The notes below the pieces were generated by a model. It searched no databases. It saw nothing but the letters and a program-made list of their open reading frames with translations, and was not told the origin of the DNA. The position numbers and the translations under genes were made by a program. A stretch of 64,000 nt of DNA from an uncultured Bryobacterales bacterium. GTDB lineage: Bacteria > Acidobacteriota > Terriglobia > Bryobacterales > UBA6623. Positions within the stretch are counted from its first letter, which is position 1. The number at the start of each line of letters is the position of its first letter. Of the stretch, positions 2,493-41,249 are shown one piece after another. The stretch is taken from NCBI GenBank assembly GCA_958295955.1, contig OY282420.1, positions 4,233,063 to 4,297,062 on the forward strand, in the 5' to 3' direction.

Positions 2493-5269
<2,777 letters not shown>

Positions 5270-7149: not shown

Positions 7150-7386
7150 ATGAAGTTTTCCGGTCTGTTGATCGAAGCGATTCGCAATGCCGAGATTCCC
7201 TTGCGCTTCGAGCCCGGCGCTGAGGAATCCGTCGCCGAGCCGGTGATCGAGCTCTTGAAGGCGTGGGTGGCGATCCATGACCCCGAGCGGCCGTCCGGCG
7301 ACTTCGAATACGGGCAAAAAGCGCTGGTCGTCAAGCTGCTGGAAGAATTGGACGACCGCATCGACTTGCCGGTGACGGACGCGTGA
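7150..7386 (+). CDS. Small acidic hypothetical protein (78 aa)
   Basis: ORF 7090-7386 with ATG at 7150 (MKFSGLLIEAIRNAEIPLRFEPG...). Codon usage is consistent with its neighbours. No motif recognised. Confidence 0.4.
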   Translation: MKFSGLLIEAIRNAEIPLRFEPGAEESVAEPVIELLKAWVAIHDPERPSGDFEYGQKALVVKLLEELDDRIDLPVTDA

Positions 7387-9554: not shown

Positions 9555-11039
9555 TCAGCGGCCTGCGCGCCGGTCAACCCCGAAATACCGCTGCAGCAAG
9601 TCCTCGGGCTCGGGAGAGCCGAGACGGGAGCCGAGCCCGCAGGCGAGCGCACAGATGCCCAGCGACCAGACGAACGGGTCGAAACCGTAAAAGCTGCGCG
9701 TTCCGAACAGCGCGTATTGGAGCAGGAACGAGGAGAATCCGGCGGCAATGCCCGCCAGGCAGCCGGTGCGGTTCATGCCGGGCCAATAGACCCCGAGGAC
9801 GATCGGCATGAGGAACGTCGCCGCCAGCCCGGTTCCCGAGAAGACGACGATGTATTGCAGATAGTCGGGTGGCCGCAAGGCGAATATCACGGCAACCGCG
9901 GCCACGGCGAAGGTCGCCATATGGGTCAGGCGCCGGGTCGCGCTCTCTTGCAACTTCCGATTTATGTTTCGTTGGTAAAGGTCTCGAACCAAAGCGCTTG
10001 ACGAGACCAAAAGAAACGAGCTGACGGTTGACATGATCGCCGCCAGCGGCGCGGCCAGCACGAATCCGGCCAACAGCGGAGGGACCGCCGCCAGGATCGT
10101 CGCCGGCAAGGCGTGATCCGGAGCGGCCAGATTCGGAACCAGCACGCGCCCCGCGATGCCGACGAAAATAACCGCCGGGTACAGCAGCAGGATATAGCAG
10201 CCGATGAGAAAAGAAGCCCGTCTGAGCGCGGCGGTATCGCGGCAGGCCAGAAAGCGCGTGATCAGCGCAGGCTGGCCGGCGACGGCCAGCGGCCATATGA
10301 AGAAAAACGAGATCGCCGCGGGCAGAGGCAAGAAGTTGTCCGGCCCCGGCCCGGAGAGAAGTTCCGGCGACTGCGCGGCCAAGCCGTCGAACACGCCCGC
10401 GAATCCGCCGGCCTTGCGCAAGGCGAATCCCGCCGTGAGCAGCACTCCGGCCAGCATGACGATTGCCTGGAAGCTGTCCGTCCAGGCGACTGCGCGGAAG
10501 CCGCCGTACGCCGTGTACAGGCAGACCGTCAAGGCCAAGCCTGTCGCCCCCCAGACGTAGGGGACGCCGAGCACGACTTCGAGCACCCGCGCGCCGGCGA
10601 TGTACTGGGCGACGATGAAGCTGGTGTGCAGAACGATCAGGGCGATTCCCGAGATCACGCCGATCGCCCGGCTGTCGAAGCGGTCGCGCAGCAGATCGGA
10701 GAAGGTCAAGGCGGAGGATGTTTGGCCGATTTCGGCGATTCTTCGTCCCAACAGGCCGAAGCCCACGGTCGCCACGACGATGTAGCCGGAAATCCACAGC
10801 ATGACCGACCAGCCGTTGGCGTGCCCCAGCGAGGGAGCGCCGATAAAGGTGCCGCCGCTCGCCGACGTGGCGATCCAGGTGAGACCCAGCACCCAGGAGC
10901 CGAGCGTGCGGCCGCCGACGAAGAATTCTTCGAGGAAGTTCCCGCTCCCCGCCCGTCTGTGAGCCAGATGAGCCAAGGCAAACGTGATCGCCAGATACAG
11001 GCAGAAAGCCGCCCAGACGGTCGAATTCGCCGTGTGCAT
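9555..11039 (-). CDS. Sodium:solute symporter family transporter (PanF-like)
   Basis: 494 aa with about 13 TM helices. N-terminal FLEEFFVGGRTLGSWVLGLTWIATSASGGTFIGAPS is typical of SSF/PanF. It sits immediately downstream of a YhdT-like small membrane gene, as panF does in other bacteria. Confidence 0.85.
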   Translation of the reverse strand: MHTANSTVWAAFCLYLAITFALAHLAHRRAGSGNFLEEFFVGGRTLGSWVLGLTWIATSASGGTFIGAPSLGHANGWSVMLWISGYIVVATVGFGLLGRRIAEIGQTSSALTFSDLLRDRFDSRAIGVISGIALIVLHTSFIVAQYIAGARVLEVVLGVPYVWGATGLALTVCLYTAYGGFRAVAWTDSFQAIVMLAGVLLTAGFALRKAGGFAGVFDGLAAQSPELLSGPGPDNFLPLPAAISFFFIWPLAVAGQPALITRFLACRDTAALRRASFLIGCYILLLYPAVIFVGIAGRVLVPNLAAPDHALPATILAAVPPLLAGFVLAAPLAAIMSTVSSFLLVSSSALVRDLYQRNINRKLQESATRRLTHMATFAVAAVAVIFALRPPDYLQYIVVFSGTGLAATFLMPIVLGVYWPGMNRTGCLAGIAAGFSSFLLQYALFGTRSFYGFDPFVWSLGICALACGLGSRLGSPEPEDLLQRYFGVDRRAGR

Positions 11040-11054
11040 TTTTCCCCCGCCGCC

Positions 11055-11294
11055 TTATCCGCGCCGGCGTCCGAAGTACAAGGAAAACCAGACGTGTACG
11101 AAAAAAAAGACGATCCAGGGCGCGAACACGCCGAGCGCGGTCCAGCGGGGAATGCCCCACAGGCTTGCGGTCGCGGATTCGCCGTAGCCGAGCGCGTACG
11201 ACAGGCCGACGGTCGTTGCCAGCGCCGCCGCCCAGATCAGAACCGCGGCAACCGCCTCGCGGCGGGCATGGCGATAATCGGGAGGACTGCCCAA
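11055..11294 (-). CDS. YhdT-like (DUF997) small membrane protein
   Basis: 79 aa, two TM helices (AVAAVLIWAAALATTVG, ALGVFAPWIVFFFVHVWF). Its position directly upstream of the SSF symporter supports the call. TTG start is uncertain. Confidence 0.55.
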   Translation of the reverse strand: MGSPPDYRHARREAVAAVLIWAAALATTVGLSYALGYGESATASLWGIPRWTALGVFAPWIVFFFVHVWFSLYFGRRRG

Positions 11295-11318
11295 GAAGGA
11301 CTCCGGTCGGGGGGGGGC

Positions 11319-12311
11319 TTACTCGTCGAAGGCCGCGTCGAAGGCGCGTCCCGAGGGCGCGAAGTCCACGTCCTTGGTGAACGCGCAGGCTTCCGCGGCG
11401 CCGGCTTCGCGCTCCATGCCGCTGTCTTCCCACTCGATCGAGAGCGGGCCGTGGTAGCCGATGTGGTTCAACGCGCGGATGATTTCTTCGAAGTCCACGC
11501 CGCCGTGTCCGAGGGAGCGGAAGTCCCAGCCGCGATTCTGATGTCCGAAATTGAGATGCGAGGCCAGAATGCCGCTCTTGCCGTCGAGTTGAAGCGCAGC
11601 ATCTTTCATATGAACATGATAGATGCGATCCTTGAACTCGCGGATGAACATCACCGGATCGACCTGTTGCCAGTGCAGGTGGCTGGGGTCGAAGTTGAAG
11701 CCGAAAGCTTCGCGTCCGCCGACGGCGTCGATCGCGCGTTGGGCCGTGTAGATGTCGAAAGCGATTTCCGTCGGATGCACTTCCAGCGCGAAACGCACGC
11801 CGCATTCGTCGTAAACGTCGAGGATCGGGTGGAACATTTCGGCGAAGTAGGCGAAGCCTTCGTCGATCGTCGCGTCCGACACGGGAGGAAAGCTGTAGAG
11901 CAGATGCCAGATCGACGAGCCGGTAAAGCCGGGCGTCACCTCGAGTCCCAGGTTCTTTGCGGCGCGCGCCGTGTTCTTGAGCGCTTCGACGGCCCAGGCG
12001 CGTTTTTTCTCGGCGTCTCCGGCGCACTCGGGCGGCGCGAAGCCGTCGGAGCGGGAGTCGTCGTTGGGGTCGCAGACCAGTTGTCCTGCGAGGTGGTTCG
12101 AGATGGCGAAAAGCTTTAGGCCGTGCCTGTCGAGGATCGCTTTCTGCCGGGCGCAGTAGTTGCTATCTTGCGCCGCCTGGAAAACGTCCATGTGGTCGCC
12201 CCAACAGGCGAGCTCCAGGCCGTCGTAGCCCCACGAGGCCGCTTTCTCGGCCAGGACTTCGAGGGGTAAATCAGCCCATTGGCCGGTGAACAGGGTGACC
12301 GGTCTTGCCAT
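11319..12311 (-). CDS. Sugar phosphate isomerase/epimerase (xylose-isomerase-like TIM barrel)
   Basis: 330 aa. Contains [31 protein letters not shown] and SIEWED, matching my memory of the AP_endonuc_2/TIM-barrel family. AAGGAG precedes the ATG. Confidence 0.85.
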
Positions 12312-30153: not shown

Positions 30154-30229
30154 GCCACGATAGCTCAGTTGGTAGAGCAGCGGTTTCGTAAACCGCAGGT
30201 CGTCGGTTCGAGTCCGACTCGTGGCTCCA
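30154..30229 (+). tRNA. tRNA-Thr (anticodon CGU)
   Basis: Hand-folded cloverleaf. Acceptor GCCACGA/TCGTGGC. D arm GCTC-AGTTGGTA-GAGC. Anticodon arm GCGGT-TTCGTAA-ACCGC (anticodon CGT). Variable loop AGGTC. T arm GTCGG-TTCGAGT-CCGAC. Discriminator T plus encoded CCA, followed by TTTTTT. Confidence 0.9.
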
Positions 30230-38921: not shown

Positions 38922-39179
38922 GCGAAATTTTTCCATGCGAAGTCGGAGATCGTCTGGTCGCGGATAAACTGAACGCCTTATTCAGCCTGAATGACTGTTT
39001 CAATGACAGCCGTTGTCTTCGTGGGCCGGGAGACGCATTGCGGACGGCAGGTTTCCGCGTTCATGCGCGCGCGTACGGTTTCCACTCGGCCGGCGCGCGC
39101 ATCTCGATGCTGTTCCCGTGCTGCGGAGGCATCGAACCGGCGCCGCCCCTGCCCACGCGCATTTGAGGAGATTCCATGA

Positions 39180-40937
39180 ATGCCAATCCTACCCCCCCCC
39201 CCCCCCCCGCACAGCACGGTTGGCGTCTTTGGTTACCTCTGCTTGTGTCTGAACGTATTTTTCTTTAGCGCTCTCCTCGCTGCCGACCCGTGGATATTCA
39301 AGGCGCTGACCAGGGAAGACTACTGGGTGGAGAATCTCACCGCGGTCTGGTTTCTCCTGGCGGGCCTCTTGTTGTTCGTCACGGCCCGGGCGGAGCGGAG
39401 CTTCTTGCGGCGCTGCGTCTATATTCTCGGCGGCATGGCGATGGTCTTTGCCGCCGGCGAAGAAATCAGTTGGGGGCAGCGCATCTTCGGGTTTGCCACG
39501 CCCGATTTCTTGATGCCCTTGAATGCGCAGAAAGAATTCAATGTCCACAATATCAGCTACGGAACGTTTGACAGCATCTACAGGAATGGCGCGCTGATCC
39601 TGTGTATGGTAACCAGCGCGGCTTTCTTCTGTCGGAAAGACAGGCTTTGGGGGATTCCATTGCCGTCAATCCTGCTGATGCTGGGCTTTCTGCTATTACT
39701 TTCCTATGACTCAAGATTTGACCTCAGAGAATTCGTAGGATTTGGGGTTTTTAAGTTCTTGGGATTTATTGTTTTTAAGGAGAAGGGGCTGCTTCTTCTC
39801 TTGCTCATCTTCGCGTTGCTTTCAGGCCAAGTCAAATGGGTCGTTGCTCCCGCTGCAACCTTGGCGCTCGTTTTGGCTCTCTCCTATGTGAACTATCATA
39901 ATGTGTACTTCCATGGCCGCGCCCATCTTGGAAGCCTGTGGGAGGTGCGCGAGTATCTGTTCGGCATGGGCTGTCTTTTCTATTGTTTGGAACTCTTGCC
40001 GCCTCAGGGACGGTTAGCGGCAATCTCACGGACGTCATTCAGCGGCCTGAAGCTGCCGGGCGGACGGATTCCGTTTTGGATGATGACCTGCCGGCTGGTA
40101 ATTGCAGGCAGTATCGGGTTGATGTTTTTTGGGCATTTCAGCGCCATGTCCAGACCTGCCGCCTTCAAGGAGGCATACCGGTCAATCACGGCCAGCGAAC
40201 CGGCGGTCCGCTCCTACTTTGACGTATATCTCAGCGAGAACGAGTTGATCTACGTCAAGGAGCCATGCGCCCGCGCCGACACGGAGCCGGTGTTCTTCCT
40301 GCACCTATACCCGGTTGACGCGAACGACCTTCCCGAGCATCGCCGGCAATACAGCTTCGACAACCTGGACTTCGGTTTCGAAAGCCGCGGCACGATATTC
40401 GACAAGAGATGTATGGCGAGAGTCCCTCTCCCTGAGTATGATATTGCCCGCATCGGCGCCGGCCAGTACGTACACGTGGAAGGCGGTTACAACAACCTCT
40501 GGGAGGTGGAGTTCCGCCTTGATGACGGTGTCGCTCTGATTGTGAACGCCAAAGAGTCCCGCGAAGCGGCGCTCCGTTCTTACTACGAGACGTTAGTATC
40601 CGGCGAACCCGTAATGCGCTCCGACTTTGACGTATATCTCAGCGAAAACACGCTGACCTACGTCAAGGAGCCGTGCGCCTCGGCCGACACGGAGGCGTTG
40701 TTCTTTCTGCATCTGCGCCCGGTTGACGTGAACGACCTTCCCGACGATCGCAAGAAGAACGGCTTCGAAAACCGGGACTTCGATTTCGGCTGGCGCGGCA
40801 TGAGGCTTGGCGGGAGATGTATGGCGAGAATCCCTCTCCCGGAGTATGCTATTGCCCGCATCTCCACCGGCCAGTTCGTGACCGTGGAAGGCGGTTACAA
40901 CCACCTCTGGGAAGCGGAGATACACCTTGAACGGTAA
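39180..40937 (+). CDS. Orphan polytopic membrane protein (~10 TM) with C-terminal tandem-repeat soluble domain
   Basis: 585 aa. GAGGAG lies at 39165-39170. The N-terminal half is hydrophobic helices and includes AAGEEISWGQRIFGF. The C-terminal half is two ~136-aa repeats. Family not recognised. GC is visibly lower than the flanks. Confidence 0.7.
   Translation: MPILPPPPPPHSTVGVFGYLCLCLNVFFFSALLAADPWIFKALTREDYWVENLTAVWFLLAGLLLFVTARAERSFLRRCVYILGGMAMVFAAGEEISWGQRIFGFATPDFLMPLNAQKEFNVHNISYGTFDSIYRNGALILCMVTSAAFFCRKDRLWGIPLPSILLMLGFLLLLSYDSRFDLREFVGFGVFKFLGFIVFKEKGLLLLLLIFALLSGQVKWVVAPAATLALVLALSYVNYHNVYFHGRAHLGSLWEVREYLFGMGCLFYCLELLPPQGRLAAISRTSFSGLKLPGGRIPFWMMTCRLVIAGSIGLMFFGHFSAMSRPAAFKEAYRSITASEPAVRSYFDVYLSENELIYVKEPCARADTEPVFFLHLYPVDANDLPEHRRQYSFDNLDFGFESRGTIFDKRCMARVPLPEYDIARIGAGQYVHVEGGYNNLWEVEFRLDDGVALIVNAKESREAALRSYYETLVSGEPVMRSDFDVYLSENTLTYVKEPCASADTEALFFLHLRPVDVNDLPDDRKKNGFENRDFDFGWRGMRLGGRCMARIPLPEYAIARISTGQFVTVEGGYNHLWEAEIHLER
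39192..39208. repeat. Homopolymeric C17 tract
   Basis: Counted directly: 'a' followed by 9 C (39192-39200) and 8 C (39201-39208), then 'gc'. It lies in codons 5-10 of the 39180 ORF. Confidence 0.95.
40158..40937 (+). repeat. Tandem direct repeat, period 408 nt (two copies), coding
   Basis: TTTGACGTATATCTCAGCGA occurs at 40218 and 40626. Long stretches are identical between the copies (CTACGTCAAGGAGCC, GAGATGTATGGCGAGA, GTGGAAGGCGGTTACAAC), about 80% identity by eye. Confidence 0.85.
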
Positions 40938-41058
40938 CGACCTGCCCGGCCGGTGCAAGCAGCACGGTTTCGACAACCATAACTTCAACTTTTGGACGCA
41001 CGGCGGGAGAGGAGTCGAGACATGCCTGGCGGCAGTCCCTTTCCCTGGAAAACTTCAA
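40931..41058 (+). pseudogene. Decayed partial third copy of the repeat unit, out of frame, after the stop codon
   Basis: Translation of ORF 40927-41259 begins NGNDLPGRCKQHGFDNHNFNFWTHGGRGVETCLAAVPFPG. This aligns with repeat residues VDVNDLPDDRKKNGFENRDFDFGWRGMRLGGRCMARIPLPE. It is in a different frame from the 39180 ORF. Confidence 0.6.
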
Positions 41059-41249
41059 ATAAAATGCAACGAAATTGCACATAAAATGAAACGCCTCGCG
41101 CCCGCGGCGTTGGTTTTTACCTTCCTGGCGGGTCGGCGCCGTCGCCGCGATTTCCACCGGCCTCGGCGCCGGCGGGTGAATCGAATCGGCATGGCTCGGT
41201 TTTCAATAGGTGGAGTCCGTGGAGCGCAGCATCGGCAATCGGCGGTCTT

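Follow-up and report, generated by a model that had tools for sequence, protein, structure and literature searches.

Can a run of a single nucleotide in the first codons of a gene act as a reversible switch in a bacterium known only from assembled DNA? The question is raised by a stretch of 64,000 nucleotides (nt) from an uncultured Bryobacterales bacterium (contig OY282420.1, positions 4,233,063 to 4,297,062), called the window here. An uninterrupted run of 17 C (C17) lies at 39192-39208 on the plus strand (direct reading and script), inside the 5′ end of a 585-codon open reading frame (ORF) for a polytopic membrane protein that ends in two beta-sandwich repeats. The original prediction proposed that changes in this run put the ORF in frame with one or the other of two start codons, or with neither (OFF). 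Our comparison of related sequences suggests, with a probability of about 70%, that C17 is a genuine slippage-prone tract acting as a translational phase-variation (contingency) switch. Two things are directly observed: tract length modulo 3 determines which start codon, or whether none, reads into the intact ORF, and this layout is found throughout a multi-copy gene family that has spread horizontally.

The elements that set the reading frame are the following.

39165-39170, plus strand: Shine-Dalgarno-like GAGGAG, 5 nt upstream of the first ATG (ATG1) and 9 nt upstream of the second (ATG2), by direct reading.
39176-39178, plus strand: ATG1, in the wrong frame at C17; a tract of C13, C16 or C19 would bring it into frame.
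39180-39182, plus strand: ATG2, 4 nt from ATG1, in frame with the 585-codon ORF at C17.
39180-40937, plus strand: the 585-codon ORF opened by ATG2, starting MPILPPPPPPHST.
39176-39268, plus strand: the ATG1 frame at C17, a dead end of 30 codons by translation (peptide MNANPTPPPPPAQHGWRLWLPLLVSERIFL, stop codon TAG at 39266-39268).

Every coordinate that had been given for the tract, the GAGGAG motif, both ATGs, the long ORF and the 30-codon frame proved correct by direct reading, script and translation. The two starts, which are in different frames and both 5-9 nt past GAGGAG, stand upstream of the tract, in the local order TTGAGGAGATTCCATGAATGCCAATCCTA-C17-GCACAGCACGG. The tract consists of five CCC codons and the CC of a CCG (codons 5-10 of the 585), and its length exceeds the slippage threshold of about 8 nt for G/C homopolymers. 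Such a run is unusual for both the DNA and the gene: from base composition, 1.5e-4 C runs of at least 17 nt are expected in 64 kb, and since CCC makes up 24% of the remaining proline codons in the gene, five consecutive CCC have a probability of about 8e-4. Bacterial genomes seldom have homopolymers of more than 10 nt (PMC9262707). As had been noted, the next-longest homopolymers in the window are only 8-9 nt long; a script found G9 (11309-11317) and two A8, and the runner-up among C runs is 6 nt. A promoter scan found no sigma-70 consensus upstream of the gene and no promoter-like site across the tract, and the sole match in an Rfam scan of the window was a tRNA at 30154. The idea of a promoter-spacer switch was rejected because the tract is downstream of the Shine-Dalgarno motif and both ATGs. 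The flanks of the tract are collinear with an orthologous locus over 7.8 kb, for which reason a chimera or assembly junction at this point was likewise rejected.

That orthologue (locus L041, on a 4.48-Mb contig of another assembly) is syntenic, with the gene order ADH-ADH-gene-UbiE-DHQS. It is 98.8% identical to the window over the 7.8 kb and differs by five indels, one of which is the tract itself: C12 against C17. At C12 neither ATG is in frame, which is the phase of the OFF state that had been predicted for C18. The other close relatives have these tracts:

L042, three tandem paralogues: C14, C13 and C17, all in frame with ATG1.
L124: C11, in frame.
L123: C9, out of frame; the annotated protein (P0023) has a spurious extension at its N-terminus.
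P0002: C14, inferred from the protein sequence MPILPPPPPHST, in frame with ATG2.

The seven close copies with DNA available for alignment thus have C9, C11, C12, C13, C14, C17 and C17. The Shine-Dalgarno motif, the start, the segment ATGAA[C/T]GCCAAT, GCACAGCACGG and 60 nt past the tract are kept in this alignment, and the tract alone varies in length (GAGGAG itself is kept in six of the seven 5′ regions, L041 having GGGGAG). The polymorphism between orthologues that the original prediction had proposed to look for is therefore present, as C12 versus C17 in L041 and as a range from C9 to C17 among the seven copies. All three phases occur in close relatives, as the proposed shift between two starts and OFF would have it: lengths of 1 modulo 3 with an MNANPT start (C13 in L042b, one of the L042 paralogues), lengths of 2 modulo 3 with an MPIL start (C17 in the window, and P0002), and lengths of 0 modulo 3 with neither ATG in frame (C12 in L041 and C9 in L123). 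Because the close copies differ by 5-8 nt (C12 versus C17; C9 to C17) and not by plus or minus 1, the length of the tract must really change in vivo.

Gene annotation has suffered from these shifts. In L041 the gene is called as a 604-residue protein (P0121) from an upstream GTG in the third frame; for both P0121 and P0023 the DNA confirms that the gene caller answered an out-of-frame tract with a long wrong-frame N-terminal extension. Six further proteins (P0014, P0027, P0080, P0090, P0103 and P0117) start inside or past the first helix and may reflect the same mis-annotation. Public N-terminal annotations of the family are systematically unreliable.

Which of the two starts came first can be judged from homologue N-termini. 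The usual N-terminus of the family is MNANP..., which corresponds to ATG 39176 (for example P0008 MNANPTPPPPHST, P0009 MNANPPPPPPHST and P0013 MNANPPPPPHST). In the seven-copy alignment ATG 39180 is found only in the window and its orthologue L041 (ATGAATGCC), the five other copies having ATGAACGCC; the protein P0002 likewise starts MPIL. The difference is a change from AAC to AAT in codon 2 of the ATG1 frame, which is synonymous there and creates ATG2. Since codon 2 is AAT instead of AAC, a synonymous difference, ATG2 is a by-product specific to this lineage, and ATG 39176 rather than ATG 39180 is the ancestral family start. Another pair of starts in different frames upstream of a tract is found in L010 and L125, an independent recurrence.

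Across the family, other members also have long tracts at the same position, 19-46 nt upstream of the conserved first helix FGYLCLCLN (in the window this helix starts 19 nt past C17). Listed by the labels of the metagenome-assembled genomes (MAGs) or by contig, they are:

Spirochaetia and Pseudomonadales: C9.
Vicinamibacterales: C10.
Binatia: C10, C10 and C13.
Gammaproteobacteria: C10, C20 and C21.
Dehalococcoidia: C13, C13, C18, G12, G15 and G19.
Unlabelled contig, closest to Dehalococcoidia loci L010 and L016: C26.
Nitrospirales: C17.
Contig with the 687-residue member P0045: G16 and G18.

Absence of a tract from orthologues had been named as grounds for doubt; instead, tracts turn up in this same place in family members from many phyla, some of them as poly-G. 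The family loci (307 kb) contain 21 homopolymers of at least 10 nt, and 18 of these are at the 5′ end of a family member. A scan of Joint Genome Institute (JGI) metagenomes with the membrane-domain alignment brought up distant relatives only (80 loci, 212 kb, at most 52% identical), and none of them has a C or G run of at least 9 nt. These loci thus gave no Illumina-based support for the tracts, but they show that the tract is specific to the close clade.

The frame states differ sharply with length. All 11 members with tracts of at most 8 nt are in frame with a canonical start, against 13 of 26 with tracts of at least 9 nt; the other 13 are out of frame (Fisher test for the out-of-frame state in long versus short tracts, p = 0.0026, on the first 23 long tracts). 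In each of the 12 out-of-frame copies measured (of the 13 in all) the downstream ORF is open over about 430-570 codons, and L123, which is out of frame, matches the query over residues 8-452. Intact ORFs behind out-of-frame tracts imply that the frameshifts are recent or reversible and do not represent decay. What the family keeps is the DNA repeat and not a poly-proline peptide, because there are poly-G versions, which encode poly-glycine, tract-less homologues (MSPEKGLD... and MHKGLD...) and out-of-frame tracts, and because the CCC run is pure. A functional poly-proline N-terminal motif was rejected on the same grounds (the poly-glycine versions being G12-G19).

These features together form the signature of a contingency locus, since the tracts are long and pure, lie at the extreme 5′ end and vary in length between near-identical copies, each of the three phases is represented, and the reading frames behind the tracts are intact. 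In the mechanism that we propose, slipped-strand mispairing during replication would add or remove C's at high frequency, and cells would cycle among three states according to tract length modulo 3. At a remainder of 1, ATG 39176 would be in frame and the canonical MNANPT... protein would be made (ON). At a remainder of 2, the present state, ATG 39180 would be in frame and an MPIL... protein would be made (also ON, although this state may be weaker, as ATG1 competes and yields the 30-residue dead-end peptide). At a remainder of 0 neither ATG would be in frame and the gene would be OFF. The second ATG would thereby lift the ON fraction from one third to two thirds of tract lengths in the lineage of the window. 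Stochastic ON/OFF switching of several paralogues could then make a population heterogeneous in its surface structure, plausibly as a means against recognition by a host or against phage.

Several points weigh against this account. The lengths are those of assembly consensus sequences, and high-frequency reversible switching within a population is a prediction from them. The assemblies with tracts all appear to be PacBio HiFi, whose consensus may miscount a 10-26 nt homopolymer by one; it is therefore insecure to call any one locus ON or OFF, and C17 could be C16 or C18. The excess of out-of-frame states among long tracts could partly be consensus error. The five longest of the first 23 tracts (C18, G19, C20, C21 and the C17 of L024, judged from the ATG preceded by a Shine-Dalgarno motif) all fall out of frame, whereas C26 and G18 are in frame. 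At 50%, the in-frame fraction does not significantly exceed the 33-40% that chance would give, and no bias towards ON is therefore claimed. RNA-polymerase slippage on the tract may blur the distinction between ON and OFF. Finally, surface exposure and function are deduced from a structural model in which the membrane part has a predicted local distance difference test (pLDDT) score below 50.

The first of these concerns can be carried further, into an account in which the tract is real and the switch is not: C17 would be a miscount of C16, ATG1 would be in frame, and the gene would be constitutive with a harmless poly-proline tail, the other out-of-frame copies being consensus errors. Homopolymers of at least 10 nt are an acknowledged problem for long-read consensus (PMC9262707). 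A related assembly has a hifiasm-style contig name (s410.ptg000484c) and the probable source projects used PacBio HiFi and metaMDBG; out-of-frame calls are confined to long tracts; and ATG1 is the normal family start. Such errors would be expected to amount to plus or minus 1, however, and the orthologues and paralogues differ by 5-8 nt. Tracts of this length are also expected to slip whatever the consensus says, the poly-G and tract-less homologues speak against a needed poly-proline peptide, and the purity of five CCC codons is unexplained by protein function. We consider a miscount with a constitutive gene unlikely. An account by neutral decay would leave the tract as a hazard only: a redundant, horizontally acquired, multi-copy family would be inactivated by frameshifts in a slippery run, with no selected switching. 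Half of the long-tract copies are indeed out of frame, redundancy of the family shows in tandem arrays of four or more copies, truncated members exist (L017, 322-337 codons; L035, 97 codons), and a degenerate repeat remnant follows the window gene. Decay would not readily explain why no second lesion interrupts the ORFs (about 430-570 codons) of any of the 12 measured out-of-frame copies, why the tract position is fixed at the extreme 5′ end, or why second starts in another frame arose at least twice; and tracts that are pure, up to 26 nt long and uninterrupted in many phyla are as expected if mutability is maintained. Neutral decay is accordingly judged very unlikely.

Slippage could also act during expression, with RNA polymerase or the ribosome slipping on C17 or on its poly-proline, so that products in several frames would come from every allele and the DNA length would tune the level of expression instead of switching it ON or OFF. 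The tracts are very long (17-26 nt), and consecutive prolines stall ribosomes and need elongation factor P (EF-P). In endosymbionts, transcription that slips on long homopolymers restores frameshifted genes, and dnaX and insertion sequence (IS) elements make use of such slippage. Documented transcriptional slippage works best on A/T runs, however, and here the length polymorphism is seen directly in the DNA. As the main explanation we hold RNA-level slippage to be quite unlikely, though it would complement slippage of the DNA. A tract that slips in the DNA and switches translation thus remains the preferred explanation.

The remaining features of the gene are as follows.

39125-39164, plus strand: upstream segment (...GCCGCCCCTGCCCACGCGCATTT), kept in six of the seven close copies and divergent in L124; presumably 5′ untranslated region or promoter-proximal.
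39219-40190, plus strand: N-terminal membrane domain, residues about 14-337, with an invariant GEEISWGQR motif (AlphaFold helices of low pLDDT, hydropathy and conservation).
40191-40544, plus strand: C-terminal repeat 1, beta-rich, residues about 338-455 (AlphaFold pLDDT 83-92, internal repeat).
40587-40934, plus strand: C-terminal repeat 2, residues about 470-585 (AlphaFold, internal repeat).

The AlphaFold (AF2) model, built on 61 homologues, has a helical membrane part with pLDDT below 50 and two C-terminal beta domains with pLDDT 83-92. In a Foldseek comparison with the PDB the C-terminal repeats weakly resemble tandem FN3/Ig modules, a generic likeness with low template modelling (TM) scores. 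The model suggests that the membrane protein probably displays Ig/FN3-like domains outside the cytoplasm. Family members have from one to eight such repeats. Just past the stop of the window gene (40921-41046) there is a degenerate further C-terminal repeat in another frame, 40% identical to repeats 1 and 2, and near this 3′ remnant two indels set L041 apart from the window, one of 6 nt at the stop and one of 22 nt at 41068. The C-terminal domain is also found in many other architectures, up to 1851 residues. Two examples are a 737-residue gene in L123 (4632-6845), which has a different N-terminal part and shares the C-terminal beta-domain, and another large gene in L124 (4596-7377).

The gene had been described as an orphan, a view that did not survive the searches. 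A search of 5.8 billion proteins returned 619 matches at E ≤ 1e-3, many of them 60-85% identical, and an exhaustive search of 50%-identity clusters returned 570 cluster representatives at E ≤ 1e-30 (6553 at E ≤ 1e-3). Pfam, NCBIfam and PADLOC assigned no family to the product; the sole database family touched was Pfam DUF7561, at 15.1-18.7 bits and below its gathering threshold of 27 bits. The family is multi-copy within genomes, with, for example, five paralogues on one 4.50-Mb contig. Upstream of ubiE-aroB, where the window has a single gene with two repeats, a related strain or species (L042, 1-5900) has a tandem array of at least four paralogues, each with one repeat and 440-451 residues. 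A tandem array and a single gene at the same site mean that both the copy number and the repeat number of the family are fluid.

Among species-representative genomes, members occur in MAGs labelled Pseudomonadales, Candidatus Entotheonella, Gammaproteobacteria, Nitrospirales, Binatia, Latescibacteria, Spirochaetia, Dehalococcoidia, Gemmatimonadota and Vicinamibacterales, and the full-length members there are 44-71% identical in the best segment. The GC content of the window gene is 0.56, that of the remainder of the window 0.65, and family genes (in the window and in loci L001-L042) range from 0.52 to 0.60, with host flanks from 0.50 to 0.68. The low GC relative to flanks points to horizontal spread, to which one must add that membrane-protein composition contributes to a low GC. 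Identities of 60-70% between phyla suggest recent horizontal exchange within one community. The description of the genome as soil-type also finds no support: its relatives belong to Tree-of-Life MAG sets that match sponge microbiomes, and it is probably host-associated. The accession block of the relatives is interleaved with Wellcome Sanger Tree-of-Life assemblies, and the mix of taxa matches MAG sets of high-microbial-abundance sponges sequenced by PacBio HiFi (for example Petrosia ficiformis). Judged by the taxon mix and the Sanger accession block, the MAGs with tracts are probably sponge symbionts.

Other homopolymers were seen in or near these loci. In a Dehalococcoidia MAG (OZ244064.1; L019, 4734-4750) a C17 tract stands at the 5′ end of an unrelated family 2 glycosyltransferase (GT2) gene that adjoins a member of the membrane-protein family (Pfam PF00535, E = 8.5e-18); the start is ATGATGCTCTCTAG-C17, and it is out of frame with the GT2 frame. 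This GT2 gene is a second candidate for phase variation, and it belongs to a class that is classically phase-variable in pathogens. In L123 a G12 (4708-4719) lies about 26 codons into the 737-residue gene, and a near-duplicate 5′ segment (7198-7212) has G6AG8. A C21 (L037, 5222-5242) lies near a gene with the family C-terminal domain in a Candidatus Marinacidobacterium MAG. A G10 (L002, 4974-4983) is in the 3′ tail of an Entotheonella family member, where it encodes GAGGGSGSE followed by the stop; it would vary the C-terminal tail instead of switching the gene. In the window itself, one of the A8 runs (11101-11108) and the G9 both lie in the gap at 11040-11318, between the minus-strand ORFs 9555-11039 and 11319-12311. 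The G9 abuts the stop of the upstream gene, and it may be a terminator, a promoter spacer or nothing.

The mechanism proposed for the C17 tract is already known, and what is new is the gene family, tract lengths of up to 26 nt and their distribution. Uncultured bacteria of many phyla, probably living in sponges as symbionts, share this multi-copy family horizontally, and the hypermutable tract is kept in it. No paper that ties phase variation or contingency loci to sponge symbionts came up in full-text literature searches. A wider idea, which we advance tentatively and at somewhat less than even odds, is that the horizontally exchanged family carries its own hypermutable G/C tract, that selection preserves the length and purity of this tract in symbionts from some nine or ten bacterial lineages that live in one animal host community (probably a sponge), and that together with tract-bearing neighbours such as the GT2 gene it makes up a community-wide “phasome”. 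If this were true, phase variation would be no speciality of pathogens; it would be a shared, transferable strategy by which uncultured beneficial symbionts vary their surface towards host and phages. Homopolymer phase variation has so far been textbook matter for a handful of host-adapted pathogens, and confirmation of heterogeneity at the level of sequencing reads would extend stochastic surface variation to mutualistic, uncultivable symbiont communities. Membrane proteins with Ig/FN3-like domains would then be a concrete candidate for interplay between symbiont and host or symbiont and phage, and the long homopolymers in HiFi MAGs would be biology that is now mis-annotated (as with the spurious N-termini of P0121 and P0023 and the truncated starts).

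How does the locus compare with known systems? The original prediction was aware of no description of such a switch for a high-GC, soil-type genome, but homopolymer switches are known from high-GC bacteria: the poly-C tracts of Bordetella fim and bvgS and the C7 of M. tuberculosis glpK. In Bordetella pertussis fim2/fim3 the poly-C tracts are in promoters, as are the tracts of Neisseria porA/opc, and the Bordetella example shows a long poly-C run controlling a surface protein in a high-GC genome. Those tracts are promoter spacers that act on transcription, whereas the tract here acts on the reading frame, downstream of the Shine-Dalgarno motif and the ATGs. In Campylobacter jejuni, which is AT-rich and without mismatch repair, poly-G contingency involves several G/C tracts per genome in genes for surface structures, including glycosyltransferases; a glycosyltransferase gene with a tract is found here too, as the GT2 gene with C17 beside a family member in L019.

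Homopolymers at the extreme 5′ end of a surface-protein gene are known from Listeria monocytogenes inlA, which has a 5′ poly-A within a general bias of homopolymers towards 5′ ends (Orsi et al., 2010, PMC2831843). Inactivation of inlA is reversible, but the poly-A there is about 7 nt and present in some strains only, whereas the G/C tracts here are 9-26 nt and family-wide. In kind of tract the locus resembles Neisseria pilC, the lgt genes and the N. meningitidis “phasome”, in which a G/C homopolymer of at least 8 nt in the first codons sets ON or OFF through the frame (PMC5084427). In N. meningitidis the length of G/C tracts of at least 8 nt is variable even inside one colony, and 19 of 55 strong repeats have several ATGs beside them, through which the origin of translation shifts (PMC5084427). 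Strain-polymorphic length, multi-copy families and several ATGs as alternative origins are thus features that the two share. The tracts here differ in reaching 26 nt and in belonging to uncultured, mostly high-GC hosts of many phyla that have one family in common at 60-85% identity, and switching is here a prediction from assembled sequences.

For the pair of starts, there is a parallel in Haemophilus influenzae, where initiation codons in different frames precede the repeat of lic2A (Dixon et al., 2007, PMC1797379). The genes lic1A and lic2A resemble the window gene in having starts in two frames, such that protein is made in two of the three phases, perhaps in unequal amounts, while the third is OFF; they differ in that the repeat is the tetranucleotide CAAT in a lipooligosaccharide (LOS) glycosyltransferase or kinase gene, and here it is a mononucleotide in the gene of a polytopic membrane protein.

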